Positions 701 to 41,213 of a stretch of DNA of 47,364 nt are shown piece by piece (position 1 is the stretch's first letter; each line of letters begins with the position of its first letter). The stretch comes from Mesotaenium endlicherianum (taxonomy: Eukaryota). The DNA lies in NCBI GenBank assembly GCA_009602735.1, contig WELA01003606.1:391653-439016 (forward strand), written 5' to 3'. The position numbers and the translations under genes are program-made. A model generated the notes under the pieces. The model was not told where the DNA came from and ran no database searches. It saw only the letters and a list, made by a program, of their open reading frames with translations.

Positions 701-748
701 ACGCTCAAGGTTCTAATTGCTTGCAGGCAAAAAGAGATCTTTTAGAAG

Positions 749-2656
749 TAAGGGAAGTGTACTCTCCAGAGTGAGCACCTCAAGATTGTAATCTGGTAGG
801 AAAACAACTAATGAAGTATGGCCTAAAAGATCACTGGAAGCACATCATGATCTTCAGAGTAGTCCTACGGCAAGGGTGTTACGTTTTTGCTTTTCGAGAG
901 GATCTTTCCTCGGTATTCAAGGAATATTTAATTCAAGTGGAAGGAAAATCTGTATAATTGTGCAAATCGACGAATACTCGAAAGAGCGAAAATGTAAACT
1001 AACGTAGAATGTGTGCTTGTGAGAGTTGCACTCACAATGACTCTTGCAAGTATATATACTTGCAAATCTTGAGGCACTGGAGTGCTTCGAGTCACCACCT
1101 AGGGCACAGGTTCATGTTCAACGAAAACGGACGAAAGGTTACAAAACCGTTCGGCCGAATGCTCCAAACGAGCCGTTTGGACGTTTGGAGACTTTTCGAC
1201 GGTTTTCCGAAATAACCGTTTCACGCCAAAGGGGCGTATTCGCGTTCACGCGACTTTTGAAAAGTCGCGATGGTTCGCGGAGTTGCGTACAGGTACTTTC
1301 GCCATGAACCGGTAGTTACGAATAACTACTTCGCCAATTGGTTAGGTGTGAACGTTTCAAACGACGAGACGCGGATTCAAATCCGCTCGGAGGCAAAGTC
1401 GCTTTGCATATTAATTGTTGTTTGAATTTTACGTCGCTTTCTTCGTATTAACGACTGGTCGTGAATGCGAAGTTTGTGACTGTGCATTATCCGAAATAAT
1501 GACAATCAAATAAACTTAATCAATCCGTGATTTATTAAGTTATCATCTCATAATTAATCAAAGTAACTTTATGAATAATGATGTCGTACTTTTGCGAAGT
1601 AGTTGAGTTACGTTACGACGCTTTTTGCAATAGTATCTTGGTCGTTTCGCCAATCGACCAGGAATTAATCGACACACACGTGTGACAAATAATTGAATGT
1701 GATGCAATCATTTATCAAATAATATGATAAAAAGTATAACGTACTTTAGGTAATTGGGAAAACGTCCCAAATACGCCTAAAATAGCTCGGATCGTTACAA
1801 AGGGCTTAAGCTGTGACTTTGCTCACCACTTGTGAAGTTCTTCAAGTGACTGGAAGCCTGGAGGGCTTGCTCTTCACAAGAGAGTAACTCAGTGGTCCTG
1901 AAAACACAAGAGATAAAAGTATAAATTTTACTGATAATCTCTGTTACTTACACCTGGCATAATGGACTTCTAAAAGATGTCTCTTCTAGGGACATCTCTA
2001 GTATTTATACTCCTGGAAATCCGGCGGGGTACGCGGCGGATCCAATGCATGTAGTCACTCTAGGAGGCTCTCCTGTGTCCACTAATGTGTTCAAGGCATG
2101 TACCAGCACTCCTATAGGCTAAGCATAACTCAAACCAATCAAAGCAAGGTGCGTAGCATATGCTACGTGTCCCTCATTGGCCGAGCTTACCTTGGGTGAT
2201 TCTACCTAGATAGCGCCTCAAAAGTGGATCTGAAGGAGTAGGTGATGCAGTCACCAAGTTATAGCCTCAATGATGCACATATACTATGGAAATGCAAAGC
2301 TTATGTAGGCTAAGGGGCTCGCAAATTTGTACGCACAAGCTAGGGGTTTTAACGGGTCACGAATAGGCAAGAATGTGCACATTGAAACACAAATTGCCCT
2401 TTGGTGAGGATCCGCTAGGGGCCGGTAGGTGACGCGGACTAGATCGCTCATATCGCGCGCGATACATGACCACATGACGCAAACCCGGTGCCATTCGGAA
2501 GGTGACTCGACGCGCTACACTTTGGTGACTTGGAGATTGAGAAAAGGTCAACGTATGGATGCGTAAAGTCTATGCAAAGTTGGCCTTCCTAGGTTGATGG
2601 TTCACACATGTGGAGCTCGGTTTCGTGCGGCAACCTCGACTCAATAAATCATGACA
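749..2656 (-). repeat. Repeat A of family S copy 1 (interrupted by family E insert)
   Basis: Homologous to 24899-25899 and 36542-37500 with several indels; TATAAATA at 2002-2009 (- strand). Confidence 0.9.
877..1799 (-). mobile_element. Family E solo LTR-like insert, copy 1
   Basis: TG...CA ends (TGTTACG/CGTTACA); 5-bp TSD AAGGG (872-876, 1800-1804). The empty site has a single AAGGG in the other A copies. Homologous (inverted) to 16005-16918. Confidence 0.9.
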
Positions 2657-4452: not shown

Positions 4453-4498
4453 TGTAATGAATCAGTATATTAGTTGATATAATATTCATTTAAATATA

Positions 4499-7542: not shown

Positions 7543-7807
7543 CTGTCATTTCAGTTGAAACGAAAATGTGACAGGCGGTCTTGTCTCCATTTAAGTTGGA
7601 GGGGAAAATATATGACAGTTAGTGAGCGAGCGCGATAAAGGGACAGTTACGTGAATCCTAAGTGTCAGCATAGTGACAGAGGGGACAGCCTGGCCCACAT
7701 GAAGCACCTTGAGCGGAAGGAAGGAACTTAACTCACCCTCAAACACATTCATATGTTTATGTTTAGCGCACCGCAACTACGTCAACTTTTAGCAATCACT
7801 TTGTAAG

Positions 7808-7909
7808 GTAAACAGGAGCGAATCCACTATACTAATAATAACATACTTCCTGCAATCCCTATGACAAAGGTCCACATCCTACTAACTTGTGCCCTGGTTA
7901 CATGTACAG
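7808..7909 (+). other. Putative intron directly upstream of the extra ORF
   Basis: AAG|GTAAAC donor, TACTAAC branch point (7880-7886), CAG|G acceptor just before ATG 7911; same signals at 18964-19070. Confidence 0.65.
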
Positions 7910-7910
7910 G

Positions 7911-11443: not shown

Positions 11444-12154
11444 TGAAATGAATCGACTTACCAAATAACAATTAATGAAGATCTTTATATCAGCAAGTAA
11501 TCTTTATGGTATTTTCTGTTGATTGATTAAACAGCAAAAAGACAACACACTAGCAATGGACAATACTCGTTAGTCAAATGGAAGTAAACTAACCTCAATA
11601 ATGCAATCAGTAAACTCACACATAAGCAAGGCTAGGAGACAGTGCATATCAATGGCTTCTAGCCTTGGATTCAGATCTCTTTCAGTAAGCTGTACGAGAG
11701 AGTTGGCCTTGTTTTCGAATGCCAAACTCAAGGGCAATACCCAGCATATGTACATGGAATGAGTTTACTGTTCAACGGCAAGTGCGATGGCACCGCCTAC
11801 CTGGGAGTTAACCACGTTGGTAGGACCTCGGTTAACCAAATCCACCGCCATCTCCCATCATCCCGAATCGCCATCCATCCTAAGGATGTCATCTGGCCAT
11901 TCATCTAGCACACCACACCTAGATGCATATCTAGGCAATTTGCTGCTACCAAGTACGGAAGGCAACTGGCTGTCAAAAAATGTGTCAGCAAGCTGACCTA
12001 GTAGACTTCAGCCTGCTGCTCCCGGCTGAGTCATTAAACTAATAATTATATAAAGTCTAGCTGACTCAATACTAACTAAAGTTCAGCAGGCTGAACTTAT
12101 TTAACTATTATATTTAAATGAATATTATATCTACCAACATACACATTCATTACA
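11444..12154 (-). mobile_element. Family C solo LTR
   Basis: Full LTR TGTAATGAAT...ATTCATTTCA (- strand); TSD CAAAG at 11439-11443 and 12155-12159. Confidence 0.93.
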
Positions 12155-12540
12155 CAAAGAAAACAGTAAATATGTAGATAAGCAGTCCTAGGAAGTGACC
12201 CTGAGAATTTTCTCCGGCAGCCATGGCGGATGAAGTAAGAACTTCAACGAAGAAGAAGACTGTCTTGTTGCTAATTCTCGCGAATGTGCTTCATTCGCAA
12301 TGTCAATTTCAAGATTTGCCAGTACTTTAAATGTTACAGTTTGAGTTGTAACTTCGTCCGAATTCGCCGGATTCAGTCGTCGATTTAATCGCAGATTCTG
12401 TGGCACATGTGTGATCGTTTAAGACAATTTTTTTTTAAAATGGACAAATATGCAGAAAATGGTAGTCGAAACCAGCAAGGTCTCTAAATACAACCAAATA
12501 TGTCATATGCACCCTATAAGGTGCACCGGGCCATCTAGTG

Positions 12541-13205
12541 TTAAGTTCAGCATGCTGAACTTTAGTCAACATTCAGTCTGCTGGACTTTATATACTTATC
12601 AGTTTAATGACTCAGCCGAGAGCAGCAGGCTCAAGTCAACTTAGGTTAGCTTCTTGGCACATTCTTTGACAGCCAGCTGACTTCCATACTCGATAGCAGC
12701 AAACTGCCTAGATATGCATCTAAGTGTGATATGCTAGATGAACGGCCAGATGACATCCTTGGGATGGATGGCGATTCGGGATGATGGGAGATGGTGGTGA
12801 ATTTGGTTAACCGAGGTCCTACCAACGTGGTTAACTCCCGGGTAAGCGGTGCCATCGCACTTGCCATTGAACAGTAAATTCATTCCATGTACATATGTTA
12901 GACATTGCTTTCGAGTTCGGCATTCGGAAACAAGGCCAACTCTCTTGTACTACTTACTGAGAGATATTTGAATCCAAGGCGAGAAGCCATTGATACGCAC
13001 TGTCTTCTAGCTTTGCTTATGTATGAGTTCACTGATTGCATTATTGATGCTCGTTTACGTAAATTTGACTTGCGAGTATTGTCCACCGCTAGTACGTCTG
13101 TCTTTTGCTGTTTCATCAGTTAACGAAAAATACCATAAAGATTACTCGCTGATATAAAGATCTTTGTTAATTGTTAATCGTCTATTGGTAAGTCGATTCA
13201 TTTAA
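12541..13205 (+). repeat. 5' LTR of family C copy 3 (first ~55 bp missing)
   Basis: Direct repeat of ~21035-21697. Confidence 0.9.
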
Positions 13206-20980: not shown

Positions 20981-21697
20981 TGTAATGAATCAGTATATTG
21001 GTAGATCTAATATTACTCATATATAATAGTTAATGAAATTTAGCATGCTGAACTTCAGTCAACATTCAGTCTGCTGGATTTTATATACTTATCAGTTTAA
21101 TGACTTAGCCGAGAGCAACTGGCTGAAGTCAACTTAGGTCAGCTTGCTGACACATTCTTTGACAGCCAGCCGACTTCCGTATTCGGTAGCAACAAACTGC
21201 CTAGATATGCATCTAATTGTGATATGCTAAATGAATGGCCAGATGACATCCTTGGGATGGATGACGATTCGGGATGATGGGAGATGGTGGTGGATTTGGT
21301 TAACCGAGGTCCTAACAACGTGGTTAACTCCCGGGTAGGCGGTGCCATCGCACTTGCCATTGAACAGTAAACTCATTCCATGTACATATGCTAGACATTG
21401 TTCTCGAGTTCGGCATTCGGAATCGAGGCCAACTCTCTTGTACTACTTACTGAGAGATATGTGAATCCAAGGCAAAAAGCCATTGTACGCACTGTCTTCT
21501 AGCTTTGCTTATGTATGATTTTACTGATTGCATTATTGATGCTCGTATGCGTACATTTGACTTGCGAGTATTGTCCACCGCTAGTACGTTTGTCTTTTCC
21601 TGTCAAATCAGTTAACAAAAAATACCATAAAGATTACTCGCTGATATAAAGATCTTTGTTAATTGTTAATTGTCTATTGGTGAGTCGATTCATTTCA
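20981..21697 (+). repeat. 3' LTR of family C copy 3
   Basis: TGTAATGAAT...ATTCATTTCA, 717 bp. Confidence 0.93.
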
Positions 21698-22091
21698 ATT
21701 GCTCCACGCGACGTGTCGCACGCGCCGCATCCGGCCACGCGGCGGATTGTTACAATCCTCCCACCTACAAGTGTGCACGTCCCGAGCACTCATGCTCCGG
21801 CACCCGTGAGGGACATTGTTGCGGGATAGTGTCCTTTTTACGCACAATCCAAAGATCGCCGTATGATCGTACCATCGACGAGTTTCGCACCCCGCGGGAT
21901 TTGAACCCTCGTCTCCTGAACACGATTGCGTACATTCGCGCTCCGATACCAATGTAGCAATACGAACAAAAAGGTAACTTGAGGTACTTTGATCGCATGC
22001 CAATTGTACTTATACAATTCAAATCGATACTTCTATCGCTCCACGCGATGTGTCGCACGCGCCGCATCCGGCCAAGCGGCGGATCGTTACA
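21698..22091 (-). mobile_element. TRIM (miniature non-autonomous LTR element), 3' LTR truncated
   Basis: 139-bp LTR 21953-22091 (TGTAAC...GCTACA on -), PBS TGGTATCGGAGC 21940-21951, ~200-bp interior, PPT GGTGGGAGGAT 21755-21765, partial second LTR 21698-21754. Confidence 0.85.
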
Positions 22092-22230: not shown

Positions 22231-22321
22231 TCAACTCTTTATCAGTTCAACTCTTCGCAGAAGGAAACATGCTTGGGAAAAAAAAACTTGAAAGGGAAAA
22301 ACAAATGCAAAAGTTAGTATC

Positions 22322-24846
22322 TGAAATGAATCTTGCTTATTCAAGATTAATATATTTCATTTAAATATATAAGATCAGAGATAGGTGGAAGCGTGTGAAA
22401 TTAGGGAGCGATCTTCGCCCTTATAATGAATTCCGTTTACTCATCTACACCCCTTGACTCATTTACCGTAGTGTGCCATAGTTGCACACTAACACGAGGC
22501 ACAAGTAAGAGGCGAGCTTGAGTACTTGAGCTTCTCCTTTAGAAACTCATGGCCTCTTGCCTACCAGGCATGCAAGCATGTATAGCACATGCACAACATC
22601 AGGGGACTAAATAGCAAAGGCGCTCTCATTTAGATGACCATAATGTAGCTAAGACACATCCCACTGACTTAGGTACAAAAACATGGAATTTGTCCGCTGT
22701 GTGACCCCGAAATGTCAGAGGGCATAACTCTGCCAATACTACTCCAAATTGAGCAATGTAATGAATCAATTCATTATGTATTTAATTAATTGCATATATA
22801 AATATAACACTAAATAAGTATTATGTCAGTATACTCACATGTGCGAGTTCATCTAAATGAATGAACGTCGATGTAATGCGAGTTTTTTTACTTTGTCAAA
22901 AATGTCAGCAGGATGACTTTTGTATCACAGTGTAGTTTGTTGACTTGTTGGGAAGGTCAGCAGGATGACTTTTGTGTCATAGTATAGTTTGCTGAGATTT
23001 GTATATCAGTTATATATAGGATGTAATATCAATAGGTTGACATATAGTAAGCTCTCCTCATATTAGTCAGTATACTTAGCTTCAGTACGCTAAGGATAGA
23101 TACATTCATTTAGATTATTATTTGTAGATTGGCACATGTGACCGTAGTATACTGAAAGTCGGAAGGTCGACTGAGATTCGGTAAACCGATGTCCTACCAG
23201 TGTGGTTAACTCCTGGGTGGGCGGAGCCGTCGTCAGTCAACTGAACAATTAGGACTTCAGTCAACCGACCAATTAATATGGTCGTTATACCTAGATCCGG
23301 GGGTCCCAACTTAACGGGTTTCCCACGAAACGGCGCACCTTGCGCCGTGGTCAACCAGGTGGTCACTAGGTTCATAGCAGGCTGGGATCTCGTGGTCCCT
23401 CATTCTGGACAGTAGGCTTTACAGTCGAATTTCTACTTGCAAGTCATGTGTGCACTTTTGGGTTTGTTCTAATGACCAGCCTTCACGGAAAATGACATGC
23501 TTGCTTCGTCTGCGCTCCAAATGAAACGAACTAGATGTTTTCCGAAAGGTCTCGTCAAGATGCATCCGTTGCCGTTAAGTTTGCTCAATTTAGAGTAGTA
23601 TTGGCAGAGTTATTTCCTCTGACATTTCGGGGTCACATAGTGGACAGATTCCATGGTTTTGCACCTAAGTCAGTGGGATGTGTTTTAGCTACATTATGGT
23701 CATTCGAATGAGAGCGCCTTTGCTATTCAGTCCCCTGATGTTGTGCATGTGCTATTCATGCTTGCATGCCTGGTAGGCAAGAGGCCATGAGTTTCTAAAG
23801 GAGAAGCTCTACTCCTCAAGCTCGCCTCTTTCTTGTGCCTTGTATTCGCGTGCAACTATGGCACACTACGATGAGTGAATCAAAGATTATAGATGAGTAA
23901 ACGGAATTCATTATAAGGGCAAAGATCGCTCCCTGATTTCACACGCTTCCACCTATCTCTGTTTTTTTATATTTTAATGAAATATATTAATCTTGAATAA
24001 GGAAGTTTCATTTCAAGCAAACTCAACGGCAACGGATGTATCTTGACGAGATCTTTCCGAAAAGTCCTAGTTCGTCCCATTTAGAGCGCAGAACAAAGCA
24101 GCCATGTCAATTTTCGTGAAGGCTGGTCATTGAAACGAACCCAAAAGTGCACACATGACTTGCAAGTAGAAATCCGACTGTAAAGCCTACTGTCTAGAAT
24201 GAGGGACCACGAGATCCTAGCCTGCTATGTACCCAGTGACCACCTGGTTGACCACGGCGCAAGGTGCGCCGTTTCGTGAGAAACCCGTTAAGTTGGGACC
24301 CACGGATCTAGGTATAACGACCATATTAATTGGTCGGTTGACTGAAGTCCTAATTGTTCAGTTGACTGACGACGGCTCCGCCTCCCCAGGAGTTAACCAC
24401 ATTGGTAGGACATCGGTTTACCGAATCTCAGTCGACCTTCCGACTTTCAGTATACTACGGTCACATGTGCCAATCTACAAATATTAATCTAAATGAATGT
24501 ATCTATCCTCAGCGTACTGAAGCTAAGAATACTGACTAATATGAGGAGAGCTCACTATATGTCAACCTACTGATATAACATCCTATATATAACTGATATA
24601 CAAATCTCAGCAAACTATACTATGACACAAAAGTCATTCTGCTGACCTTCTCAACAAGTCGAGCAAACTACACTATGATACAAAAGTCATCCTGCTGACC
24701 TTTTTGACAAAGTAAGTAAACTCGCATTACATCGACATACATTCATTTAGATGAACTCGCACATGTGAGTGTATTGACACAATACAAATTTAGTGTTATA
24801 TTTATATTTGCAATTAATTAAATAAATAATAAATTGATTCATTACA
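22322..24846 (-). repeat. 3' LTR of family N (split by an inverted solo LTR of the same family)
   Basis: 22322-22756 plus 24021-24846 matches 41214-42474. Confidence 0.93.
22757..24015 (+). mobile_element. Family N solo LTR, opposite orientation
   Basis: TGTAATGAAT...TTCATTTCA; TSD AGCAA (22752-22756, 24016-24020). Confidence 0.93.
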
Positions 24847-24882
24847 ATCTCCCCAACTTAAATTGTTGTCGCCTCGACAACA
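24847..24882 (-). promoter_or_regulatory. Hairpin + polypurine tract of family N
   Basis: - strand TGTTGTCG-AGG-CGACAACA-ATTTAAGTTGGGGAGAT then LTR TG. Confidence 0.8.
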
Positions 24883-24898
24883 CTCAGCATATGATACT

Positions 24899-25899
24899 TG
24901 TCATGATTTATTGAGTCGAGGTTGTCGTATAAAATCCAAGCTCCACATGTGCAGAACATCAACCTAGGAAGGCCGACTTTGCATTGACTTTACGCATCCG
25001 TATGTTGACCTTTTCTAGATTTCCAAGTCACCGACGTGTAGCGCGTCGAAGCATCTTCCGAATGGCACCAATTTTGCGTCATTTGGTCGAGTATCGAGCG
25101 AGATAGGTGCGATCTAGTCCGCGTCACCTACGGGTCCCTAGCGAAACTTTCCTAAGGCCCAATTTGTGACTCAATGTCCCCGAAGGTGACATTGTTGGCT
25201 CTTCGTGACCCCAAGCTTTGTGCGCACAAATCCGCGAGCCCCTTAGCCTACATAAGCTTTGCATTTCCATAGTATATGTGCATCATTAAGGCTATAACTT
25301 GGTGACTGCATCACCTACTCCTAGAGGAAGCTTCCTCAATTTCCAGATCCACTTTTGAGGCGCTATCTAGGTAGAATCACCCAAGGTAAGCTCGGCCAAT
25401 GAGGGACACGTAGCATATGCTACGCACCTTGCTTTGATTGGTTTGAGTTATGCTTAGCCTATAGGAGTGCTAGTACATGCCTTGTACACATTAGTGGACA
25501 CAGGAGAGCCTCCTAGAGTGACTACATGCACTGGATCCGCCGCATACCCCACCGGATTTCCAGGAGTATAAGTATTAGAGATGTCCCTAGAAGAGACATC
25601 TTTTAGAAGTCCATTATGCCAGGTGTAAGCAACAGAGTTTATCAGTAAAGCTTACACTTTTATCTCTTGTGTTTTCAGGACCACTTAGTTACTCTCTTGT
25701 GAAGAGCAAGCCCTCCAGGCTTCCAATCACTTGAAGAATTTCACAAGTGGTGAGCAAAGTCATAGCTTAAGCCCTTGCCATAGGACTACTCTGAAGATCA
25801 TGATGTGCTTCCAGTGATCTTTTGGGCCATACTTCATTAGTTGTTTTCCTAACAGATTACAATCTTTAGGTGCTCACTCTGGAGAGTACACATTCCTTA
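24899..25899 (+). repeat. Repeat A1 (1001 bp)
   Basis: Direct repeat of 36542-37500; TATAAGTA at 25567. Confidence 0.95.
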
Positions 25900-25911
25900 C
25901 TTCTAAAAGAT
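25899..25911 (+). promoter_or_regulatory. Putative self-priming primer-binding site
   Basis: ACTTCTAAAAGAT is the exact reverse complement of ATCTTTTAGAAGT at 25598-25610, 31 nt after the TATA start; no TGG-type tRNA PBS here. Confidence 0.75.
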
Positions 25912-25947
25912 CTCTCTTTTCCTGCAAGCAATTAGAACCTTCAGCGT

Positions 25948-27138
25948 ATGCCTACCCGTAGTGGGCTTTCTTATCAGCCATACTACGAAGGGGTTAGTGG
26001 AGAAGACTCAGACTCAGATCTCAGCACTATCACTGAACCCGCTGAAGAAGAGCAACCTGCTCTCCAGCACACAGCAATTGCTTCTGAGCCATCTCCCCAG
26101 TGGGCTCACTACGATTTCTGGTATCCCATGGCAAGTGATCACGAGGTCAAGACTGACAGGTCTGCCTACCGCTCCAGCGGTAGGCCAGGCATCTGTGATC
26201 TAGAAGATACCATCTCGGAGTTTCAGGCTGACTTTGCGGCTGCAAAGCTCAAGACACCCACGCTAACTAAGCGCGACGGCTTCGACACGCTTATGCGCTA
26301 CCTCTCGCACGAGGCCCGCGACACCTTCCGTGAGAAGGAGGCCGAGCTCCGGACCCGCACTGAGCTTGTAGGTGACCCACCAGTGGCGACCCTGCTAGCT
26401 GATCCAGTGCCAGCCTTCTGGAACATCCTGAAGACAGATTTCCAGGCTGCAACTGAAGAGAAGGTGTACGAGCTGCACCATTTCTTCCGACGCAAGAACA
26501 AGACTATCCGCATGATGTACCGCCGCTTGGTGCACCTCCGCCGCGATGTCGGCACTGTCACTGACCGGGAGGCCGCGGAGATCTTCTTGCGCGCCGTCGA
26601 GCCGCGTCTGAGGGAGAGGGCCGTAGTCCCCCTCATCGACCGCCACGGTTCAGAGTATTCTCTGGAGCAGGCCTACCTCTCCGTTGAGAAGCAGAGCTTG
26701 GCCGCCGCACGGAGCAACATTAGCGATCGTGTGGGTTTAGCATCCACGGGCGTGCGCCAGGAGGCCTCAATGCTGCCGTCTTCTACGACGCGCTCGACGC
26801 CTACCCGCCAGCCCCTGTCGCAGCAGCAGCAGCCTCAGCGCTCTCAGTTGCCCCAGCAGACGCAGCAGCGCGGAGCTATGCGAGGCCGCATTTCCATGGC
26901 TGCCACTACGAGCGATCCCTGCTGGTCCTGCGGGAAGACGGGCCACTCACGCCAGAACTGCACTCTCGCGCAAAATGGCAAGCCCAGCGACTGCATTCTG
27001 GCAAGGCCAGCCACCTGCAGATCATTTGTCTGCAGGAAAAGCGCGACGTCAAGAACGGACGCGCTCGCGACAGCCCTACGCCTTCAACAGGACAGCGAGG
27101 CGCACGCAACCCTCGTACGGGTGGCCGCCCCGCGATGA
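25948..27138 (+). CDS. Gag-like protein with CCHC zinc knuckle
   Basis: 396-aa ORF; CWSCGKTGHSRQNC; a probable second knuckle is broken by a frameshift near 26995. Confidence 0.85.
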   Translation: MPTRSGLSYQPYYEGVSGEDSDSDLSTITEPAEEEQPALQHTAIASEPSPQWAHYDFWYPMASDHEVKTDRSAYRSSGRPGICDLEDTISEFQADFAAAKLKTPTLTKRDGFDTLMRYLSHEARDTFREKEAELRTRTELVGDPPVATLLADPVPAFWNILKTDFQAATEEKVYELHHFFRRKNKTIRMMYRRLVHLRRDVGTVTDREAAEIFLRAVEPRLRERAVVPLIDRHGSEYSLEQAYLSVEKQSLAAARSNISDRVGLASTGVRQEASMLPSSTTRSTPTRQPLSQQQQPQRSQLPQQTQQRGAMRGRISMAATTSDPCWSCGKTGHSRQNCTLAQNGKPSDCILARPATCRSFVCRKSATSRTDALATALRLQQDSEAHATLVRVAAPR

Positions 27139-29850
27139 TAGCAGCTACGGCCACGACGGACGCCGCATTGATGCCTGGAGCCGAATACTGCAGCTTCGAC
27201 GACGTCAGCGATGCCCTCGTGGAGGCCAACGCGGAGATTGCTAGACTCCGTGGCCTCGTCGACGTCCATAACTATGACGCGTGCGAAGCACTCCTCGCGT
27301 CCGCTCCACTATCCTACGCCACGGCACTGACAGCTGGCGCATGCACAGCTTCAGCGCACACATCAGGCTCAACGGCAGCGCCGCAGCCCCGCGCACGTCC
27401 GCATTACGACGTAGGGCCCGCTGCTAGAGCTGCAGGCGCCCGCACAGGCAGCTCTGCTAGCCCTGTGCGCAACGCTCTGACAGTTGTCAGCAGCAACAGC
27501 CGGAGTCCCGACAGACTGCCGGATGGCAGGCTGCACGACTGCGCGGTTGCGCCATCTTCCGACGCAAGCTCGCGCGCACGCGGGCCAGCCCGCAAGTCAG
27601 CGGAGGCCCCGACAGAGCCCCTGGCTTGCGCTTCCCTGCTGGCACCAGCAGGCCTCCCGTCAGCTCGCGTAGCGACAGCTGGCAGGCAGGGACGGGGGCA
27701 CCTGGCGGCGTGCACGGCTACAGCTGGTCCGGTCGCAGCCTCCCTCTCCGTCCGTGCGGCACGCCCGTGCGCAGCTCTGCGCACAGGCAGGGATAGCCGG
27801 TCCCCGCTGGCTGCTGCAGACAGCAGGCTCCAGCAGAATCCGCCATGTGGCACGTGCACGGCAGGCGAGGCCGCCTGTGCCGACAACAGCATGCACGCAC
27901 GCACGCTGGCTCACACGCGCGCCCAGCGCACTGCGCTGCCAGGTCCACGTTGCACCCGGCGACGCCACGACGTCGTCACAGCGGCAGCTGCAGCTGCGCA
28001 TAGCAGCTGCACCCACGCGCTGCCAAGTGGCGCGTGCGCGCAGGTCTGCACGGCCAGCGCAGCGACGGCCGCAGCGGCCGCCACCCTCGGTCAGCAAGGG
28101 GGGGTCCTGACTGCGCTGTGCGGCCGGATCGCCGGCAAAAGCGCCGACAGCGCACCCGCAGCTGCGCACATCCAGGGCTCAGCCCCTGCCGCACACGTGC
28201 TGCCACTTGGCACGCGCGCATGGCCCGGCTCAGCCCGTACAGATCCAGCGGTCGGAGCAGCCACCCGCAGTCAGGGGGGGGCTATACCCACTGCGCCACG
28301 CGGCCGGATGTTCGATCGCGGTGCCGACGGCCCGCGCACGGTTGCGCACAGCCAGGGCCTAAACCCTGGCTGCGCACAAAACCCCGGCAGCAGCCCAACG
28401 CAGGCTGCCGGGGGGCCGGTTAGCCCACGCATCGGGGGGAGGGCGCTGCGATCTTTGCCCGGGGCAGCCGAGATAGACGGCGCCACCGGTCCAGTGACCC
28501 TGCCCCTCGGCCCCAGCAGCCACCAGGGGGCGCCACCTGGCAGCCTCCTGGCAGCCCCGACCGCGCCAGCAGCTGCAGCAACTGCTGCAGCCGCGGCCGC
28601 ACACGCGCCGGGGTCCGCAACTTTTGCGGCCGAACCCGCGACCGGCTGCACGGCAGGCCTTGCGGCAGGCTGCGCAAGGAGTCCTGCGGCAGACAGTGCG
28701 GCAGTTTGCGCGGCAGGCTGCGCAGCAGGCCTCGCGGCGCGCCCTGCGGCAGACAGTGCGGCAATCTGCGCGGCAGGCTGCGCGGCAGGCGCGACGGCAG
28801 TTCCCGCCACCGGCTGCGCGGCAGGCGCGGCGGCAGATCTCGCAACGGGCCCCGCGGCAGGCCTCGCGGCAAGCTGCGCGCACGGCGCTGCAACAGGCCC
28901 CGCGGCAGGATGCGCGGCAGGTTTGCCGGCTGCGCCAGCAGCGGCCATTCTGGCCTGCTGCGCACGCGCGCAGCCACTCGTCAACCCCTCTGCAGTTGGG
29001 CGCGCGAGCCGCGAGCACATGCTCGCAGCACCGGCCAGTCGGCCCGTTGTTCCGCAGAAGCGCGCCGGGCCAGACCAGGGACGCCGGACAGAGGAGGCAC
29101 CGCGGCTGCCCCGTTCCTTCCGCATCCTAGAGCCCTCCACGACCTCAGCAGAGCCGACGCCACATGCGCTCGCTTCGCCTATGACGACGGTGCAGCTCAG
29201 CGCCGAGGTCATCTCTCTAGCACTGCACCGCATGCCGGCGGTCTCCTTCGCAGAGCTCGGCGTCTCCATGGAGGCAACGAGGCAGGTTGCTCAGCTGATG
29301 CTCCAGTCGCGCAGAGCCACGCTGCGCACCGCCGCCAGGTGCCCGACGGCCGATGCCGCCACCGCGGTGCGATCCGCGCCCGCGCGCCCTGCGCATGAGC
29401 GCAGGATGATCAGCACTCCTAACGCCGCGTTTTTGGATAATTCGCAGGGGATCGTGCTCGTCAACACCCAGGCGCCGCAGCGCATCATGTTCGACACAGG
29501 CGCGCAGCCGCTTCTCATCAGCCTCCGCTACTTCCGTCAGCTGGGACTCTCTTCCGCCGACTTGGAGGACTCTCCGACGCGCATTAACACCGCCGTCGGC
29601 GCGTCCAAGACCGTCGCCGGCCGCACGAGGTTAGCGCTACTGTCTGCGCCCAGGCACGGCAGACGAGACAACCATCCATCGCCACGCACTCGTCACTCCT
29701 TCCAAGTCCTTTGATGTGCTCCTAGGGCAGGACGTGCTCTTTTCCATTGGCGCTGCGGTCAAAAACTGGGCGGAGCGCGTCTTCTATCGTCCCAACTGGA
29801 GGACAGGGGGGACGCGCACCGCATCCTTGCCCCTTGACATTGTCGATCGC
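27135..29850 (+). pseudogene. Ala/Pro-rich spacer followed by retropepsin-like aspartic protease
   Basis: IMFDTGAQPLLIS (~29485-29520), then DVLLGQDVL after a frameshift (~29713). Confidence 0.8.
28640..28930 (+). repeat. GC-rich coding minisatellite (12-nt GCGGCAGGC-type period, 60-nt higher-order duplication)
   Basis: CCTGCGGCAGACAGTGCGGCA occurs at 28683 and 28743; encodes AAGC/AAGL/AADS repeats. Confidence 0.8.
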
Positions 29851-31772
29851 CGCCCAGCAGTGTCCGCTCTTTATGGCTTCATGGGGCTGGGCGATGGCCG
29901 GCAAGTGGTCAAGACCGATAAGGACGGGCCCGAGGACGAGGAGATCTCTGTGGGGGTGGACCTGCTCGAGCCACAAGACGAGGAGCCGGACCTACCTAGT
30001 GCCGAGTTCCACCTCACGCCTCAGCAGCAGGCGGATGTCCTGGCAGCCCAGGCCAGGGAGCAGATCCGCATCTGCATTGCCCACAGCGCGATGATGCGGC
30101 AGATGGCGGACGATGCCACTGAGGCCCTCGCCACGGCCAGCACAGCCATCGCTGCCGCCGCCCTTGCTCGCGGTGCGGCCGCAGCGCCTACGGCTCATCA
30201 GGGGGTCTCGGCCTCTCGCGGCGAGCCGTCCGCGAGGATCGACGTCCGCGTTTGCCACGACGTGCCTGTTGGCGTGGCCATTCAGTACGGTATGGACTCT
30301 CAGCCGCCCTCTCACAACGCCTCGCATCAGACCGGCGAGACCTGGCCTTGCACCACGGCATCCGAGGACGAGGTCATGCGGCAGGCAGCTTCTCCTGGCA
30401 GATCCAACGAGCAGTCCCTCAAGAGTGAGGAGGAGACGCAGTGGGAGCGACTGCCAGAGGCATCCGTCGAGATACTCAGCGCGGAGCCCCCGCCAGCTGC
30501 GCCTACGGCACGCAGGCAGCGCGCACCTACTGGTTTGCCCGGCTTCAGCGCACCCAGCTAGCCCATGACACACGACTGGTCCAGCAGGGCTCGCACCGAC
30601 GCCGCTGGACCCAGCCGTCCGACTGGCTCAAGTGCTCGACGAGCCACGAGTGTCGCCGCATTGCGCATTTGTTTGCGACGAGCCGGGATGCCGCGGCCTC
30701 CTCTAGCGCTGGCACACACTCCATACAGTAGCCAGTGCCCAGGCTCAGCGTCCGCGAGCCACCCCGCACGACCCCGTCTATCTGCGCCCATCTGACCTAC
30801 ACACATTGCACTAAGCCAACCATCGGGCCCGCTCGAGAGACCACTCCTCTCCGCGAGACGAGCCGCTCCCGATCGCTCACACCCCTTTGCGAGACGCGAG
30901 AGGTGACTCCCCTCCGCGAGACGCGAGCCTGCTCCATCACGCGGCCCTACGACAACAGGGAGCGCACGCCTCCTTACGATGACACGCGGGCCCGCGGGGA
31001 CACGCCGCCATACAACGATACTCGAGATCGATGCCGCACTCCGCCCTTTCGGCCCCTCTCAGCTGGCGACGACGCTCAGTCTTCTTCCGAGGCGCATTTT
31101 GTGATGCTGGCCCCTACAGCTCCGCACGCCAGCGTCCCTTGCAACCACATCGCTGGCGACTGTCCCTTCAGGTCACCTCCTCCCAAGGTGGCCCGCACCG
31201 ACAGCAGGCCGCCCAGTCGCCACCCATCTACAGCCGCCGCACGCACACGGCTCATGCCTAGTCTCCGGCAGCCCCGAGACGCGCCCGTCCCACAAGGGCA
31301 GCCCCGGCCGCGAGTCCAGCTGGCCCCTCGCCAGTTAGTTTGGTCCCCGCAGGAGGTCGACAGCTCCGAGCGCTCCGTCTGCACAGTCCCCTCTGCAGAC
31401 ATGCGCGCACGCCAGCGGGCCTACTTCGACCCGCACCCCTACTTGACTCAGCGTCCCGTTCTCGACCAGCTGGCCCACGCGGCCTCGCACCAAACTGACC
31501 GCGCCCAGCGCGACAGGTGGCAGCAGCTGTGCGTGGCCTCGGCCCGACGTCAGGCCCGCGTTGTCTCTCCGACAGCCCTGCAGGATGCGCGCCTGCGGTG
31601 GCGCACCTACCAGGACCACGCACGGGAGGAGCGTCCGCAGCCGCTCACTGACCGCATCCCCAGCCTTATGCGTGACTACGCAGACCGTGCTGTGGCCGCC
31701 CTCCGCGTGGCGCCACATCAGCACAACGGCAAGCGTACCTTCCCGCCGCCCGCTTAGCCCGGCACCCCCGCA

Positions 31773-33054
31773 ATGGGGTGTCGCCCACTTCCGACTCCTA
31801 TCTGCGCAGACGCTCTAGACGAGCGGCCCGGCGGCATCGTCCTCATCGAGCTCTTTGCCGGCATTGCCACCGAGTTGCTCGCGACCTTACAGGCCGGCAT
31901 CTCGGTGCGCCGCTATGTCTACGTCGATCCCGATCCTGAGGCCCAGCAGGTGGCCCGTCGGCAGATGGCGTTGTGCCACGAGCGGTTCCCAGACCTCCTT
32001 CCCGCGCACGCATTCCGCCGCGCTCGGACAAACTGGCCCATGGACATCCGCGACATCACCGTCGAGCATGTCACCCGACTTGGGCCCATTGACCTCGTCA
32101 TCGCCGATTGGGAGTGCCAGGGCTTCTCCAGAGCCGGGCGTGGCAGGGCGCTCAACGATCCCCGCACGGCCCTCTTTTGGCACTNACGATCCCCGCACGG
32201 CCCTCTTTTGGCACTTACTCCGCGTCCTCAACATTGTTGAGGATCGCCAGCCGCCTCACACACTCGCGTGGGTCCTGGAGAACGTGGCCGCGCGCCACGA
32301 TCACCGACCCGATGTTAGCGCCGACTTCGCTCTTTGCAGCAGCTTCGTCGGCCGCGAGGCCGTCACCGACGCTGCCCAGATTGGTTCCTTCGCGCACCGC
32401 GTCCGCGCCTACTTCACGAACCTGGCGATGCCAGGTACTCTCGAGGCGTTGGCCGCCTCTCATCAGCCTCACGCGCGAACCGTCGACTCCATCCTCGATG
32501 CCCCTTGTCTGGCCCAGCGCGTGACTGCACTACCACATCCCTCCATGGTGCGGTGTGAGGTCCTGCATGACGTCACTCGCGCGCTGCCGACTTTTGTCAG
32601 CCGCTACGACAGCGACGCCTTCGTCGGAGATCAGCGCGAGATGGTCATCGACCTGGAGACTGGCATGTTTGACAGGCTGCGTCCTGCGGAGATGGAGCGT
32701 GTCATGGGCTTCCCGCCACATCTCACACAGGTGGACGGTCTCACTGAGGTGAACCGCATTCGCCTCTTGGGGCAAGCAATTGACGCCAACGTCCTCACAT
32801 GGATTCTGCTGCAGACGCAGGCCTTGGCGCCTCTCTACGCCGCAGCTCGGCATCCCGAGCTGCCTCGGCCTGCCGATGATATGGACGATGACTCCACCGA
32901 CGATGACAATCCGGCCCCGCCCGGCACAACGTGGCATCCTCAGCGCGCAAGGCCTGCACTGCAGGCGCGCGCCCGCCCCCCCTCCCCACCGCCGCGCAGG
33001 GAGGACTCTGGTTTGCTGGTGGGGGGACGGCGGAGAGAGGAGTCCTCACAGTGA
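31773..33054 (+). CDS. DNA (cytosine-5)-methyltransferase domain within the polyprotein
   Basis: Motif I IELFAGI, III DIRDI, IV DLVIADWECQGFS (Cys 32115-32117), VI VLENV, VIII HRVRAYF, IX EMERVMGFP, X RLLGQAI. The two ORFs join in frame once the 30-nt duplicate + N at ~32185 is removed. Confidence 0.93.
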
Positions 33055-33150
33055 CCCAGGGAGTCCCGGTCACCCAAGGAGTCCCAGTCACCCTTTCTTT
33101 TTCCTTGCTCGCAGGCAGACGGTGCCAGGCAGCTGGCCGCAGCTGCCACG

Positions 33151-34700
33151 GTGCAAGTACCCGCGGCAGGCCGAGCGCCAATCGGTGCAGGGCAGGTGAC
33201 ACCTACAGCACCACAGTCTACCCCAGCGGCAAGACAGGTGGCTCCAGCTGCAGGCCAGGCGACGCCACCAGCTCCACTGACATGGAAGCTGGGGGGGACA
33301 CTCACCAAGGCGCAGGCTGCACAGTTGACGGCACTGCTGGACGAGAGGCGCAGCACCAACTTTGCCAGCCGCATGCACGATCTTGGGCGCTACAGGGGGG
33401 ACTCCATGCGGATTACTCTCACGTCGCAGGAGCCCGTTTTCCTGAAGCGTTATTGCTACAGCCACTTTGAGGATGGCTTGATCAGCGCGCAGACAGGCAA
33501 GCTGGAGGACAGCCGGCTCATTCGGGAGTCCTCCTCTCGCTATGCCGCACCCACGGTCATGCCGACCAAGAAGGATGCCTCGGGCAACTGGTCCGAGAAG
33601 AGGATGTGCGATGACTATTGTAGGCTGAACGAGGTCACCGAGCAGGACAGATATCCTATGCCGACGCCTGACGAGATCTTTGACGACATTGGCACGTGCA
33701 CTTGGTTCTCAGTGCTGGATCTGCGTCAGGGCTTCAACCAGATTCCCATCGCCGAGGAGGACCAGCATAAGACGGCGTTCTGGGGAGCACAGCGGCTCTA
33801 CGAGTGGGTGGTGATGCCGTTTGGGTTGAAGAACGCGCCAGCTACCTTTCAGAAGGTGATGGATAAGGAGCTAGCCGGGCTGTCCTTTGCCCGATGCTAC
33901 ATTGATGACGTGCTCGTCTTCAGTCAGACGTTTGAGGAGCACGTGGCGCACATCACTGCTGTCCTGGACCGCTTGGAGGGCGCTGGGCTCAAGTGCCATC
34001 CAGGCAAGTGCACTTTTGGGACCCGCGAGGTGGAGTACCTTGGCCACCTGCTCTCCTCCAGCGGATTGGCACCCCAGCTGGCGAAGATCTTGGCCATCAC
34101 AGGCATCCCACCTCCTACAGATCTCTCGCAGCTGCGGGCCTTCCTCGGCATCGCCAACTACTACCGCCGCTTCGTGCCAGGGTTCAGCGAGCTAGCCAAG
34201 TTGCTCAACGACTTGCTCCGCAAGGGCGTTGCCTACGTTTGGGGACCAGAGCAGCAGGCGGCATTCGATAAGCTCAAGGAGCTGTTGGTGAGCGATCCTG
34301 TGCTTCGGCGTCCTGACTACGCGAAGCCCTTCATCCTCCACACCGACTGGTCGCAGGCAGGGCTCGGCGCTGTGCTGGTGCAGGAGCATGACGGCTTCGA
34401 GCATGTGGTGGCCTACGCCAGCCGCAGCAACAACCGCGCGGAAGGCAATTACGGCTCCTACGAGGGGGAGTGCCTGGCAGCGGTCTAGGCGATCGTGCAC
34501 TTCAGGCACTATCTCTACGGCACGCACTTCCGCCTGGTCACCGACCATCAGCCACTTAAGTGGCTCATGACGTCGGAGCGCTTGACCGGCAAGTACGCAC
34601 GGTGGGCGCTTATCTTGCAGGAGTACACCTTCGACGTGCACCACCGTCCAGGCTCGACCAACCTGGACGCTGACGGTCTCAGCCGTAACCCGCTGCCCTC
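33151..34700 (+). pseudogene. Ty3/Gypsy reverse transcriptase + RNase H
   Basis: DLRQGFNQ, MPFGLKNAPATFQ, YIDD, LRAFLG; RNase H HTDWS...ECLA...TDHQPL...ADGLSR; one TAG (likely from TGG) at 34486. Confidence 0.95.
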
Positions 34701-34940
34701 CTCGAGGGATCTCACTGTGGCCCGCCACGATGAGGATGAGCCAGTGGCCTGGCACGCGGCGGCCTTCCTGGCCTTCACCGTGGACGGCGATGTGCGGCCC
34801 GCAGGGCTCACTGGCCTGGACATGGTGACCGTCACCACTTGGCGATTGGCCCTGGCAGCGGCAGAGGATCAGGACAGCTGGCAGCGCGGTCCCGAGGACG
34901 TGTGGGACGACGCCCCAGTGCTGCAGTACGTCACGGCCAN

Positions 34941-36203
34941 ATCACGGCCAAGGAGTTGGCACCTGATGTCAGCGCACGCGAGCGGGACCGCATCCTCAGG
35001 CGCAGCCGCGACTTCATTTTCATGGAGGGGCGTGTGCGGCGCGTGATGGCGAACGGCTCCGTCCTGGTGGTCCCTGAGCCTGCCATACGCAGTCAGCTGG
35101 TGCGCCGAGTGCACGAGTCCCTCGGGCACTTCGGTGTCAAGCGCACCCTCAGTCTTCTTCAGGCCGAGTACTGGTGGCACGGCATGACTAAGGTCGTCGC
35201 CGCTGTTGTCAGCAGCTGCACTCTCTGCGACCGTGTGCGCTCGAGCTTCACAGCGCGCACCGTTGCCCTCAGCCCCCTTCCTATTCAGGGGCTGTTCTAC
35301 AGGTGGTCGCTTGACTTGGCTGGAGAGCTGCCCAAGTCTCGCCAGGGCAACCTCTACGTCTTGGTGATGATTGAGCACATGTCCAAGTGGATCGAGCTCG
35401 TGCCCTTGCCCAACAAGGTCAGTGAGGGGATCGCTCAGGCCTTCCTCCATCAGGTCCTTAGCCGTTTTGGCGGCTGCGCTGAGGTGCTGACCGACCAGGG
35501 CAAGGAGTTCCAGGGCAGCTTTCAGAAGCTGCTGGAGCGCTCTATGATCGACCACCGCACCACCTCCCGCGATCATCCTCAGGCTGACGGCCTCGCCGAG
35601 CGCATGGTGCAGACCGTCAAGCTAGGGTTGCGGAAGTACTGCCTTGCCCACGACCGTACCCACTGGGACGACGCCCTCCCTTGGCTGGCGATGGGGTACA
35701 GGTTCAGTAAGCAGGCCTCCCTGGCCTCGCACTCTCCCTACTTCCTTCTCTACAGCCGACAGCCCATCCTGCCAGCAGCAGCCAGGACTGTGGCCGAGAA
35801 CGTCTTGGACTTGGACAGTCCCGAGACATGGAGTGCTCTTATCGGGCAGCGTGATCAGCTCTTTCGGCGCCTGATGCCCATGGCCATGGATAACCTCAGT
35901 ATCGCACAGCATCGGAACACACTGAGGTACGCCATGACTCGTGGAGGAGCCTATCATCCGCGGGTGTTGCAGTTTTCCGCAGGTGACTTCGTGTACCTGC
36001 GACGCCAAACGAAGAACACCCTCGACACCAGCAGCTCGCCGGTCATCCTGCGCGTCAAGCGTGCCTTGGCGTCAGGAGTCCTGAAGCTGGAAGGCGCAGA
36101 TGACCGTCTTCACAAGGACCACACGAAGAACTGTGGGCCGTGCCACCTTCCTAACCTTGACTTGCAGGTCCGTCCCCGCGACGCGCGGCCGCCCAAGGAC
36201 TAG
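34941..36203 (+). CDS. DDE integrase (HHCC + rve core)
   Basis: HESLGHFG...CTLC; SLDL, TDQG, LAERMV; no tyrosine-recombinase motifs seen. Confidence 0.93.
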   Translation: MTAKELAPDVSARERDRILRRSRDFIFMEGRVRRVMANGSVLVVPEPAIRSQLVRRVHESLGHFGVKRTLSLLQAEYWWHGMTKVVAAVVSSCTLCDRVRSSFTARTVALSPLPIQGLFYRWSLDLAGELPKSRQGNLYVLVMIEHMSKWIELVPLPNKVSEGIAQAFLHQVLSRFGGCAEVLTDQGKEFQGSFQKLLERSMIDHRTTSRDHPQADGLAERMVQTVKLGLRKYCLAHDRTHWDDALPWLAMGYRFSKQASLASHSPYFLLYSRQPILPAAARTVAENVLDLDSPETWSALIGQRDQLFRRLMPMAMDNLSIAQHRNTLRYAMTRGGAYHPRVLQFSAGDFVYLRRQTKNTLDTSSSPVILRVKRALASGVLKLEGADDRLHKDHTKNCGPCHLPNLDLQVRPRDARPPKD

Positions 36204-36389
36204 GCGTGCCAGATCTGTCACAGCACTGGCCAGGAGGCCAAGATGCTGCTCTGCGACAGCTTCAACCTCGGCTTCCACATCGGCTGCCTCGACCCGCAGC
36301 TGGCCCGCGTGCCAGTTGGAGATTGGTTCTGCGGAGACTGCACTGAGCTAGCCTTAGGCAGCGTACACAGCCTATCAGCTAGATGCTGA
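36204..36389 (+). pseudogene. PHD finger, in frame after integrase (separated by one TAG)
   Basis: ACQICHSTGQEAKMLLCDSFNLGFHIGCLDPQLARVPVGDWFCGDC fits C4HC3 with the fourth Cys changed to Phe; not in the ORF track. Confidence 0.9.
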
Positions 36390-36394
36390 GAGCT

Positions 36395-36403
36395 GGGGGG
36401 GGA
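36395..36403 (+). promoter_or_regulatory. Putative polypurine tract (G8A) preceding B1
   Basis: Lies just after the pol stop and immediately before the repeated segment. Confidence 0.65.
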
Positions 36404-36539
36404 ATTAAAACATTTTCGACTTGACTCCCTTTTTGGCTATAACGCCACATGTATTATAGACTCCATTGCAGCACAGCCTGCTTGCCTATGATGTGTTGCT
36501 TATGCCTATGGTGCACACTCGACCTCGTAACGCACGACA
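36404..36539 (+). repeat. Repeat B1 (136 bp)
   Basis: Direct repeat of 37501-37636; ends CACGACA. Confidence 0.95.
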
Positions 36540-36541
36540 AC

Positions 36542-37500
36542 TGTCATGATTTATTGAGTCGAGGTTGTCGTATAAAAACCAAGCTCCACATGTGCAGAAC
36601 ATCAACCTAGGAAGGCCGACTTTGCATTGACTTTACGCATCCGTATGGTGACCTTTTCTAGATTTCCAAGTCACCAACGTGTAGCGCGTCAAAGCATCTT
36701 CCGAATGGCACCAATTTCGCGTCATTTGGTCAAGTATCGAGCGAGATAGGTGCGATCTAGTCCGCGTCACCTACGGGTCCCTAGCGAAACTTTCCTAAGG
36801 CCCAATTTGTGACTCAATGTCCCCGAAGGTGACATTGTTGGCTCTTCGTGACCCCAAGCTTTGTGCGCACAAATCCGCGAGCCCCTTAGCCTACATAAGC
36901 TTTGCATTTCCATTGTATATGTGCATCATTGAGGCTATAACTTGGTGACTGCATCACCTACTCCTAGAGGAAGCTTCCTCAATTTCCACATCCACTTTTG
37001 AGGCGCTATCTAGGTAGAATTACCCAAGGTAAGCTCGGCCAATGAGGGACACGTAGCATATGCTACGCACCTTGCTTTGATTGGTTTGAGTTATGCTTAG
37101 CCTATAGGAGTGCTAGTACATGCCTTGTACACATTAGTGGACACAGGAGAGCCTCCTAGAGTGACTACATGCACTGGATCCGCCGCATACCCCACCGGAT
37201 TTCCAGGAGTATAAGTACTAGAGATGTCCCTAGAAGAGATTATCAGTAAAGCTTACACTTTTATCTCTTGTGTTTTCAGGACCACTGAGTTACTCTCTTG
37301 TGAAGAGCAAGCCCTCCAGGCTTCCAGTCACTTGAAGAATTTCACAAGTGGTGAGAAAAGTCATAGCTTAAGCCCTTGCCATAGGACTACTCTGAAGATC
37401 ATGATGTGCTTCCAGTGATCTTTTGGGCCATACTTCATTAGTTGTTTTCCTACCAGATTACAGTTTTGAGGTGCTCACTCTGGAGAGTACACATTCCTTA
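36542..37500 (+). repeat. Repeat A2 (959 bp)
   Basis: Copy of A1 with a 42-bp deletion near 37238. Confidence 0.95.
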
Positions 37501-37636
37501 ATTAAAACATTTTCGACTTGACTCCCTTTTTGGCTATAACGCCACATGTATTATAGACTCCATTGCAGCAAAGCCTGCTTGCCTATGATGTATTGCTTAT
37601 GCCTATGGTGCGCACTCGACCTCGTAACGCATGACA
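37501..37636 (+). repeat. Repeat B2 (136 bp), element 3' end
   Basis: Ends CATGACA, followed by TSD TACT. Confidence 0.95.
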
Positions 37637-38470
37637 TACTTTTATTTAAGAATACACTTCAATCAACTAGGTGAAGCAAAGCAAGCAAAGAAGACACGAG
37701 CGTAATATATTCACCTACCCAGTGCAAGTGAAAATAAATCACAACAAACTGTCATGCAAGCAATCATCTGACTTCACAATCAACAATTGAAGACATGCAT
37801 GGACATACCTATACTCACAATAGTCCTTCCAGTTGAAAGACACAATAGAGCAGCTCATTACATGCACACCACACCCAAATCAAACAGCCTCCTTTCGAGG
37901 TCAAACAATGAAAGAATGTCATTAAGGCTCAGCCTACTGAACAAAGCCTTTTCTCCTTCTCTTGGTCTTCAACTCCTGCCGTGCTCACATCTTGAAAGCT
38001 CCTCACAAGCAATTTCTTGTGACTTAGGTACCTGATCAAAATTCAGCGAACTGAAGGAAGAGGGTGACCAACTGATTTGATGGCATTAAATGCCCTTACA
38101 AGATGAGTAGCATCAGGTTAATGAGCCCAAGAAAATTTTAAATTAACCACATTTTCTGAACACACTAAGTTCAAAGAAACATATGGTTTTGAGCAATATG
38201 CTGGTCACCTCAAGCAGGTCCCTGATGTGCCATGCACTATTGCTACCAATCCCAACTTATGGTAGTGTACTTACTCAGTTAGTACGTACACTCGCTCAGG
38301 CAGTGTACTGCAACTCACAGTCCACACCAGTCAGTCACTGATGCTCCTGATATTAATGCAGTACATACATAGGATGTGGCAGTGTATGACTCAGTTAGTA
38401 CATACACTTGCTGTTGAGTATGCAGGTAAGCACAGCTTACTGAATACTCCTAATACACATCCCATCTTCC

Positions 38471-41212: not shown

Positions 41213-41213
41213 C

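Follow-up and report, generated by a model that had tools for sequence, protein, structure and literature searches.

A probable self-priming signal in a Ty3/gypsy retrotransposon with split repeats and a DDE integrase from Mesotaenium endlicherianum

A retrotransposon located in a stretch of 47,364 nucleotides of Mesotaenium endlicherianum DNA (contig WELA01003606.1, positions 391,653 to 439,016; the whole stretch is termed the window) probably primes reverse transcription with its own RNA. The self-priming is likely because a distant relative of the element, L073, keeps the pairing of the predicted RNA 5′ end with the primer-binding site (PBS) through compensated base changes. The element unites a probably Tf1-like priming mode with a split-repeat layout and a DDE integrase, and falls outside the Tf1/sushi group with respect to the chromodomain and the CA end of the 5′ repeat.

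Domain content and repeat layout

On the basis of its domain content the element is assigned to the Ty3/gypsy retrotransposons. Gag, protease, reverse transcriptase (RT), RNase H and DDE integrase follow each other in the Ty3/gypsy order, and the polypurine tract (PPT), the TG...CA ends and a target duplication in the Ty3/gypsy range of 4–5 bp are present (Table 1). Tyrosine recombinase families were found neither in the nine scanned element frames nor in L073. Likewise, the window frames and L073 gave no chromo match, a PHD finger standing in place of the chromodomain. The coding region has several breaks and the window also contains Ns; an intact homologue of the methyltransferase is carried by L073.

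The element is built as A1-PBS-genes-PPT-B1-AC-A2-B2 and spans TGTCATG (24899) to CATGACA (37636), flanked by the TACT duplications. Instead of a pair of whole LTRs of equal length next to PBS and PPT it has the order A-PBS ... PPT-B-A-B, which corresponds to the A-coding-B-A-B arrangement of split-repeat elements. The 5′ repeat terminates without CA before the PBS, namely with CCTT in the window element and with TATTC in L073. At the A1-PBS joint CATTCCTT is followed by ACTT, at the PPT-B1 joint the G8 tract is followed by AATTAAAAC, and at the A2-B2 joint CATTCCTT directly precedes AATTAAAAC, such that the last base ahead of the PBS directly adjoins the first base behind the PPT (one A being ambiguous). 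The A-B joint is accordingly a fusion of both predicted cDNA ends, and the coincidence of the PBS edge with this joint is what the permuted-LTR model put forward in the initial annotation demands. The element ends GACA and TGTC, in turn, meet 2 bp apart at the B1-A2 transition, inside the repeat. Both repeat pairs have diverged alike (18 of 958 sites between A1 and A2, 4 of 137 between B1 and B2; Fisher p 0.34), which would follow from each pair having become identical when the element inserted. The primer sequence is missing from A2 of the window copy owing to a 42-nt deletion equivalent to 25597-25638, which is likely to be a later microhomology deletion since the corresponding stretch of copy 1 has AGAGA at either side.

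Within repeat A of copy 1, positions 877-1800 constitute a solo LTR (TG...CA) with a 5-bp duplication CCCTT, which is 84.5% like 16004-16918 on the other strand.

Table 1. Coordinates of the element and of copy 1 in the window
Feature	Positions	Strand	Remarks
Copy 1 primer-binding site	737..749	-	
Copy 1 repeat A	750..2656	-	starts with TGTCATG at 2656, no B ahead; solo LTR inside (~877-1800)
Copy 1 predicted self-primer	1966..1978	-	31 nt past TATA at 2009
Left 4-bp target duplication	24895..24898	+	TACT
Repeat A1	24899..25898	+	1000 nt; start TGTCATG = left integration end; end CATTCCTT, no CA
TATA box	25567..25574	+	TATAAGTA; TATAAAT in copy 1
Predicted self-primer (predicted RNA 5′ end)	25598..25610	+	ATCTTTTAGAAGT
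Primer-binding site (PBS)	25899..25911	+	ACTTCTAAAAGAT; adjoins A1
Gag-like frame with CCHC knuckle	25936..27138	+	E 0.004, below Pfam cut-off
Long frame, aspartic protease at its end	26724..29714	+	E 6e-5
C5 cytosine methyltransferase domain	31758..33054	+	two frames split at an N; PF00145 in 31758-32180
Reverse transcriptase and RNase H	33055..34935	+	stop within
DDE integrase (H2C2 + rve)	34941..36203	+	
PHD finger	36204..36347	+	3′ of integrase; stop between in window copy, in frame in L073
Polypurine tract (PPT)	36388..36402	+	G8 at end
Repeat B1	36403..36539	+	137 nt; adjoins PPT; end CACGACA
Internal att-like site	36533..36548	.	CACGACA-AC-TGTCATG; integration ends face to face, 2-bp spacer
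Repeat A2	36542..37499	+	98.1% identical to A1; 42-nt deletion removes primer sequence
Repeat B2	37500..37636	+	97.1% identical to B1; end CATGACA = right integration end
Right target duplication	37637..37640	+	TACT

Pairing of the predicted primer with its binding site

The TATA box and the 13-mer 31 nt further on were found exactly where the initial annotation had placed them (starting at 25567 and 25598, respectively), and the 13-mer is the exact reverse complement of the boundary segment 25899-25911. This pairing is the sole Watson-Crick stem of at least 9 bp within 24899-26000. Its length alone is unremarkable, a 13-bp stem anywhere in 1.1 kb having been obtained in 180 of 3000 Markov simulations, while its anchoring at the repeat boundary is striking: the complement of the boundary 13 nt occurred in none of 20000 simulated A1 repeats (analytic p ~3e-5 for a position anywhere in A1). 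An extension of the stem to 21 bp was discounted, as it is located upstream of the start predicted for the RNA and L073 does not have it. The claim that priming would begin where the A homology ends stands insofar as the site adjoins A1, but the true end of A1 is 25898; the BLAST homology reaches 25902 by chance run-on, and the edge is fixed by the A2-B2 and PPT-B1 joints. Both halves are indeed intact in the diverged copy 1, but this conservation loses its weight as evidence and was not used as support, because the two copies share 96% identity over the 3′ part of A and 26 unchanged bases are expected with a probability of 0.34, i.e. in about 35% of cases by chance. The PBS of both families, the window element and L073, lacks the initial TGG; a mature tRNA 3′ end is therefore ruled out as primer.

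Among 33 surveyed genome-contig loci one, L073, belongs to the clade of the window element. It is a collapsed whole element with the same domain set, its RT is 55% identical to that of the window element and its best match among solved sequences is Ty3 Gag-Pol (E 7e-100). A stop separates gag-PR-DNMT from RT-INT-PHD and the frames are otherwise open. The non-coding DNA of the two elements gave no BLAST match at E 1. The longest stem of L073 within 6630-8800 is formed by ATCTTTGTCAAGT (7239) and ACTTGACAAAGAT (7415) and has the same 13-pair frame. Covariation, which had been suggested as a check of the priming signal, is borne out: ten pairs are the same, the three central pairs are changed on both sides and none is broken. 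The chance of three compensated changes amounts to 1/27 to 1/64, the covariation (3 of 3 pairs) coming from a single comparison with one independent distant family. When the partners are swapped between the two elements, the pairing energy falls from -14/-16 to -5 kcal/mol, a loss of about 10 kcal/mol. L073 also has a TATA-like box 29 nt upstream of the primer, a G7 tract, a B repeat of ~107 nt, no CA before the PBS and, at 7048-7063, the att-like site CACGACA-GC-TGTCACG. The latter is found as well in L116, the second contig of the same bin (91% alike), which has an uncollapsed 3′ end of the order PPT-B1-att-A2-B2-flank and retains the primer sequence in its 3′ A repeat (A2). B1 and B2 of L116 are equal over 106 nt and both differ from B of L073 at the same 5 sites. 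The A-B joint of L116, a contig without its own PBS, is 1-2 bases short of the B1 start, and the joining of ends is thus not always flush. L073 (G001:C201) and L116 (G001:C148) are eukaryotic retrotransposon contigs in a cyanobacterial metagenome bin and represent contamination.

Further relatives were sought in several collections. Another 400 genomes of the same phylum yielded no clade member. A metagenome scan gave 5 loci with 33-43% identity, the two long enough (L001, L003) being devoid of long repeats; viral contigs gave 67 loci with distant RTs only (29-36% identity) and no match to the integrase-PHD query; and plasmids gave one irrelevant RT of 40% identity. In five further RT contigs of G001, neither a primer frame of this kind nor such an att site was present. 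A pattern search for both primer halves over all collected loci matched L073 (with its duplicate L113), the window and L032, the last of which was set aside as a chance match with halves 4.2 kb apart. The PBS pattern matched twice in G001, the second match being L122, as against two matches for a control.

Sequencing reads over 24700-26500 were examined in the runs X23 and X24 (RNA), X1 and X9. The RNA reads stem from other copies, as an identity of at least 99% was found in 0 of 66 and 3 of 294 of them. First mates are chiefly minus-strand, which in a usual stranded library corresponds to plus-strand RNA. In X24 the depth is 17 over 25554-25614 and rises from ~25615 to 50 and then to 82-98. 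The sole pile of read ends, consisting of 11 molecules at 25627, lies 29 nt past the predicted start and occurs in one of the two RNA runs; X23 has no depth step at the position of that in X24. A transcription start near 25600-25627 fits the X24 reads with its exact place unfixed, and an RNA start at 25598 is loosely supported. No reads from A into the PBS were seen, and the depth is 0 at 25920-25980 in both RNA runs. The listed loose ends at the end of A run into B (25 + 14 reads in X24, 8 in X23), apart from 4 in X23 that go elsewhere, and those directly ahead of 24899 are mixed (7 and 20 reads), the pattern to be expected from other insertions starting at this position. It is solo A-B units or the 3′ repeats of other copies that are transcribed, and the internal region hardly. 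Poly(A) reads over 24899-25899 (X23/X24) derive mostly from a single strand and extend into B, the host flanks ahead of 24899 being mixed.

In folding calculations an RNA beginning with the primer gives pairing probabilities of primer and PBS of 0.96, 0.96 and 0.87, which drop to 0.58, 0 and 0 with 100 nt added upstream. With a 5′ extension of 30 nt the window stem still pairs (0.99), and folding hence does not fix the start site in the window. The side helices of the Tf1 pretzel do not rise above shuffled sequences, 28-222 of 500 shuffles matching them in all six tests. Hairpins extend across the predicted start in L073 (7228-7255) and in the window (25577-25604), and would mask part of the primer only when upstream RNA is present. 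The hairpin is strong in L073 and leaves the pairing unblocked in the window; it could mask the primer in 3′ copies. Sequence variants within the stem also occur. A subfamily with an extra T in the T run of the primer accounts for 11 of 18 reads in X24 and appears in one X9 contig (depth 7 of 18.5) and two X1 contigs (0.2% of depth). The A run of the PBS, in turn, is longer by one A in 15 X1 contigs (25% of depth) and one X9 contig (3.3 of 7.3). The two insertions would compensate each other but were not counted as support, being unlinked and having disagreeing shares in X1.

Proposed replication and integration route

On balance we favour a route in which the cDNA is self-primed, its ends become joined and the integrase cuts the internal GACA-NN-TGTC site. 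We place good confidence in the cutting of joined ends at the internal site, and a more moderate one, comparable to that in the complete route, in a covalent circle as the joined form. Priming, circle and cleavage are all inferred from the anatomy of the DNA. The loss of the primer sequence from A2 of the window copy and RNA reads in which no leader with primer and PBS was seen speak against the route. The RNA would start at 25598, 31 nt past the TATA box, and its first 13 nt would fold onto 25899-25911. In analogy to Tf1, RNase H would then free the primer, and minus-strand DNA would begin at 25898. Following standard LTR chemistry, the minus strand would jump to A2 and the plus strand would begin at the PPT edge at 36403, resulting in a linear cDNA B-A-genes-B-A whose ends lack TG/CA and would offer no integrase signal. 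Subsequently, as suggested by the A2-B2 joint, A of the right end would be joined to B of the left end, most simply in a two-repeat circle. A 2-bp staggered cut at the B-A site beside the PBS might then generate two CA-3′OH ends with 2-nt 5′ overhangs. With the cut placed behind CA on both strands and a spacer of 2 bp in between, ends like processed retroviral ends are formed. Such ends would correspond to the processed substrate that integrases of this class normally use, and the 4-bp duplication would result from strand transfer. The cut at the PBS-side site would give precisely the order A-genes-B-A-B, and a solo A-B of normal appearance would remain if A1 and A2 recombined.

Since a symmetric circle contains a pair of B-A sites, insertions of the mirror form A-B-A-genes-B are also expected from it. 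None of the 3 informative copies has this form (not significant), all three being A-genes-B-A-B. This sole form would be explained by an end-to-end jump of the RT, in which the plus strand at the A end switches to the minus-strand 3′ end and recopies B, the integrase acting on an intermediate bridged in one strand, with self-priming kept. The seven bases (CACTTGA) that the A-PBS and PPT-B edges of L073 have in common would guide such a jump, and the joint of L116 that falls 1-2 bases short agrees with it. However, the corresponding edges in the window family have only one base in common; we regard the jump as unlikely, yet as an alternative to be taken seriously. Self-priming itself would be dispensable if the selected stem closed a 5′ leader for packaging or translation control and a tRNA fragment or another RNA acted as primer. 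Covariation indeed demonstrates pairing, not priming, the pretzel helices are unsupported and the window holds no tRNA. On the other hand, the 13-mer has its 3′ end directed precisely at the cDNA start base required for the A-B joint, and the PBS differs between the families at three central bases, which a conserved host primer would hardly allow, and a mere leader stem is thus improbable.

The likeness of the A-B-A-B layout to that of recombinase-type split-repeat elements (PMC5890265, as far as the repeats are described there) and the RNA reads passing from A into B would also be compatible with copying from the RNA 3′ end in B2, the A-B joint being inherited and the PBS a relic. A relic PBS would not covary, though, and the two B copies of one element remain identical to each other, as in L116; moreover, the scanned frames contain no tyrosine recombinase and the element has a DDE integrase, a PPT and a 4-bp target duplication instead, which makes this reading very improbable. 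A2 and B2 alone resemble a normal TG...CA LTR, and with the Ns and broken frames of the window one might suspect a chance match in an ordinary element (LTR = A+B) affected by rearrangement or misassembly. This suspicion is already largely refuted by a layout common to two independent insertions and a distant family, by the abutment of PPT on B1 and PBS on A1 with an intact target duplication, and by the anchored chance of ~3e-5 together with the covariation.

Relation to known elements

Self-priming is known from Tf1/sushi elements, plant Tcn1 elements and copia TAR (PMC6317226, PMC4600332, bioRxiv 2022.12.06.519325). According to the relevant passages of these papers, Tf1/Tf2, Tj1 and the Tf1/sushi and plant Tcn1 clade carry a PBS right behind the 5′ repeat that is complementary to the predicted RNA 5′ end and has no tRNA match; the PBS of the window element likewise lies directly behind the 5′ repeat and is complementary to sequence inside it. 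In contrast, Tf1/sushi/Tcn1 elements have a chromodomain, a three-helix pretzel and two whole LTRs whose CA end precedes the PBS, whereas the window element has split repeats, no CA, a PHD finger and an unsupported pretzel. The CA end of the 5′ LTR before the PBS is used as a criterion of the self-priming group in the pertinent section of bioRxiv 2022.12.06.519325. The designation Tf1-like in the initial annotation therefore holds for the priming mechanism but not for the family, given the missing chromodomain, the missing CA and pretzel helices not above shuffles.

The closest description with regard to the layout is that of KnitGypsy-Dnmt3 from Klebsormidium nitens (de Mendoza et al. 2018; PMC5890265), which carries a cytosine methyltransferase in Pol and, according to the legend of Fig. 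4c, repeats arranged as in DIRS elements; the window element combines both of these features as well. The A-coding-B-A-B order is spelled out in the same paper for Symbiodinium DIRS, and its account of KnitGypsy-Dnmt3, where it treats this element, names neither a primer nor an att site and offers no target duplication or model of replication (PMC5890265). Our literature search met the name KnitGypsy-Dnmt3 in PMC5890265 only, and the passage of bioRxiv 2026.05.21.726589 that names Gypsy-DNMT3 gives no repeat structure. A K. nitens RT (P0010) is 53% identical to that of the window element, which does not imply identity with KnitGypsy-Dnmt3. The layout A-coding-B-A-B is shared with the split-direct-repeat tyrosine-recombinase elements (PAT/TOC/Ngaro; SymbioDIRS-Dnmt3), in which it is taken to reflect a circular intermediate. 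Elements of the PAT/TOC/Ngaro type, however, integrate by a tyrosine recombinase, whereas the window element has a DDE integrase, a PPT, a PBS and a 4-bp duplication.

DDE enzymes cut end-to-end junctions in a comparable manner at the circle junctions of IS3/IS30. The integrase of foamy virus cleaves a palindromic circle junction, and the foamy-virus/HIV 2-LTR circle junctions, as far as described, thereby resemble the proposed reaction of a DDE enzyme on a palindromic end-to-end junction (PMC1180852). The retroviral att sites differ in being located at the cDNA ends, with linear DNA as the normal substrate; those of the window element lie inside the repeat, and the joined form would consequently be obligatory.

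The Chlamydomonas reinhardtii element Gypsy-7a_cRei (Craig et al. 2023; PMC9940879) is likewise a Gypsy element with a PHD finger and is described as active. According to the legend of Fig. 6, the terminal 8 bp of its right LTR are missing from the left one (PMC9940879). This difference would be the look of an A-genes-B-A-B layout with an 8-bp B; Gypsy-7a_cRei is a candidate relative, with a putative B1 and self-primer. Named relatives of the window element occur in charophyte algae, a liverwort and chlorophytes. We see about an even chance that in a clade of PHD-bearing Ty3/gypsy elements, widespread in green plants, the integrase sites have shifted from the cDNA ends to the middle of the LTR, and that the self-primed, obligatorily end-joined (circular) cDNA of this clade is integrated by a retrovirus-type integrase through circle-junction cleavage, Gypsy-7a_cRei possibly being a naturally active example that laboratory strains of Chlamydomonas already contain. 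In a protein search, Gypsy polyproteins with PHD were common in chlorophytes (Chlamydomonas, Tetrabaena, Pleodorina, Haematococcus, Scenedesmus), and PF00145 was present in ~28 of the 120 listed ones, counted by eye; DNMT-gypsy elements are accordingly not confined to charophytes.

Within our literature search, outside of which subscription papers, theses and Repbase reports lie, nothing connected gypsy elements of the split-repeat type with self-priming or with an internal att site. Self-priming is known, and the layout had been noted once, in the KnitGypsy-Dnmt3 legend, without a mechanism. Linear cDNA is regarded as the form from which LTR elements and retroviruses integrate, and end-joined circles mostly pass for dead ends. 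If the proposed route is true, a natural family uses end-joined cDNA as its only integration route, and the old question of a circular precursor would become testable with a defined 16-bp site. Moreover, a self-primed lineage would be added outside the chromodomain-bearing Tf1/sushi pattern, a repeat layout noted earlier but left unexplained would find its explanation, and LTR-finding programs would be predicted to miss or mis-bound such elements.

The window contains several other mobile elements. Positions 4478-7212 and 16916-18922 are two copies (87.6% alike) of an RT-RNase H-integrase region from a second, unrelated gypsy element, and two frames at 9283-11171 (minus strand) encode a piggyBac-like transposase (DDE_Tnp_1_7). 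The segments 22321-24846 and 41213-42474 as well as 11441-13203 and 20981-21700 are nested LTR families that have long internal hairpins and share a 58-nt motif. The pair 24016-24846/41644-42474 encloses the methyltransferase-bearing element, the insertion being located 50 nt from a PPT-like tract at ~24849. Finally, 44295-45217 is bounded by a terminal-inverted-repeat pair (261 nt, 88%) and is MITE-like.
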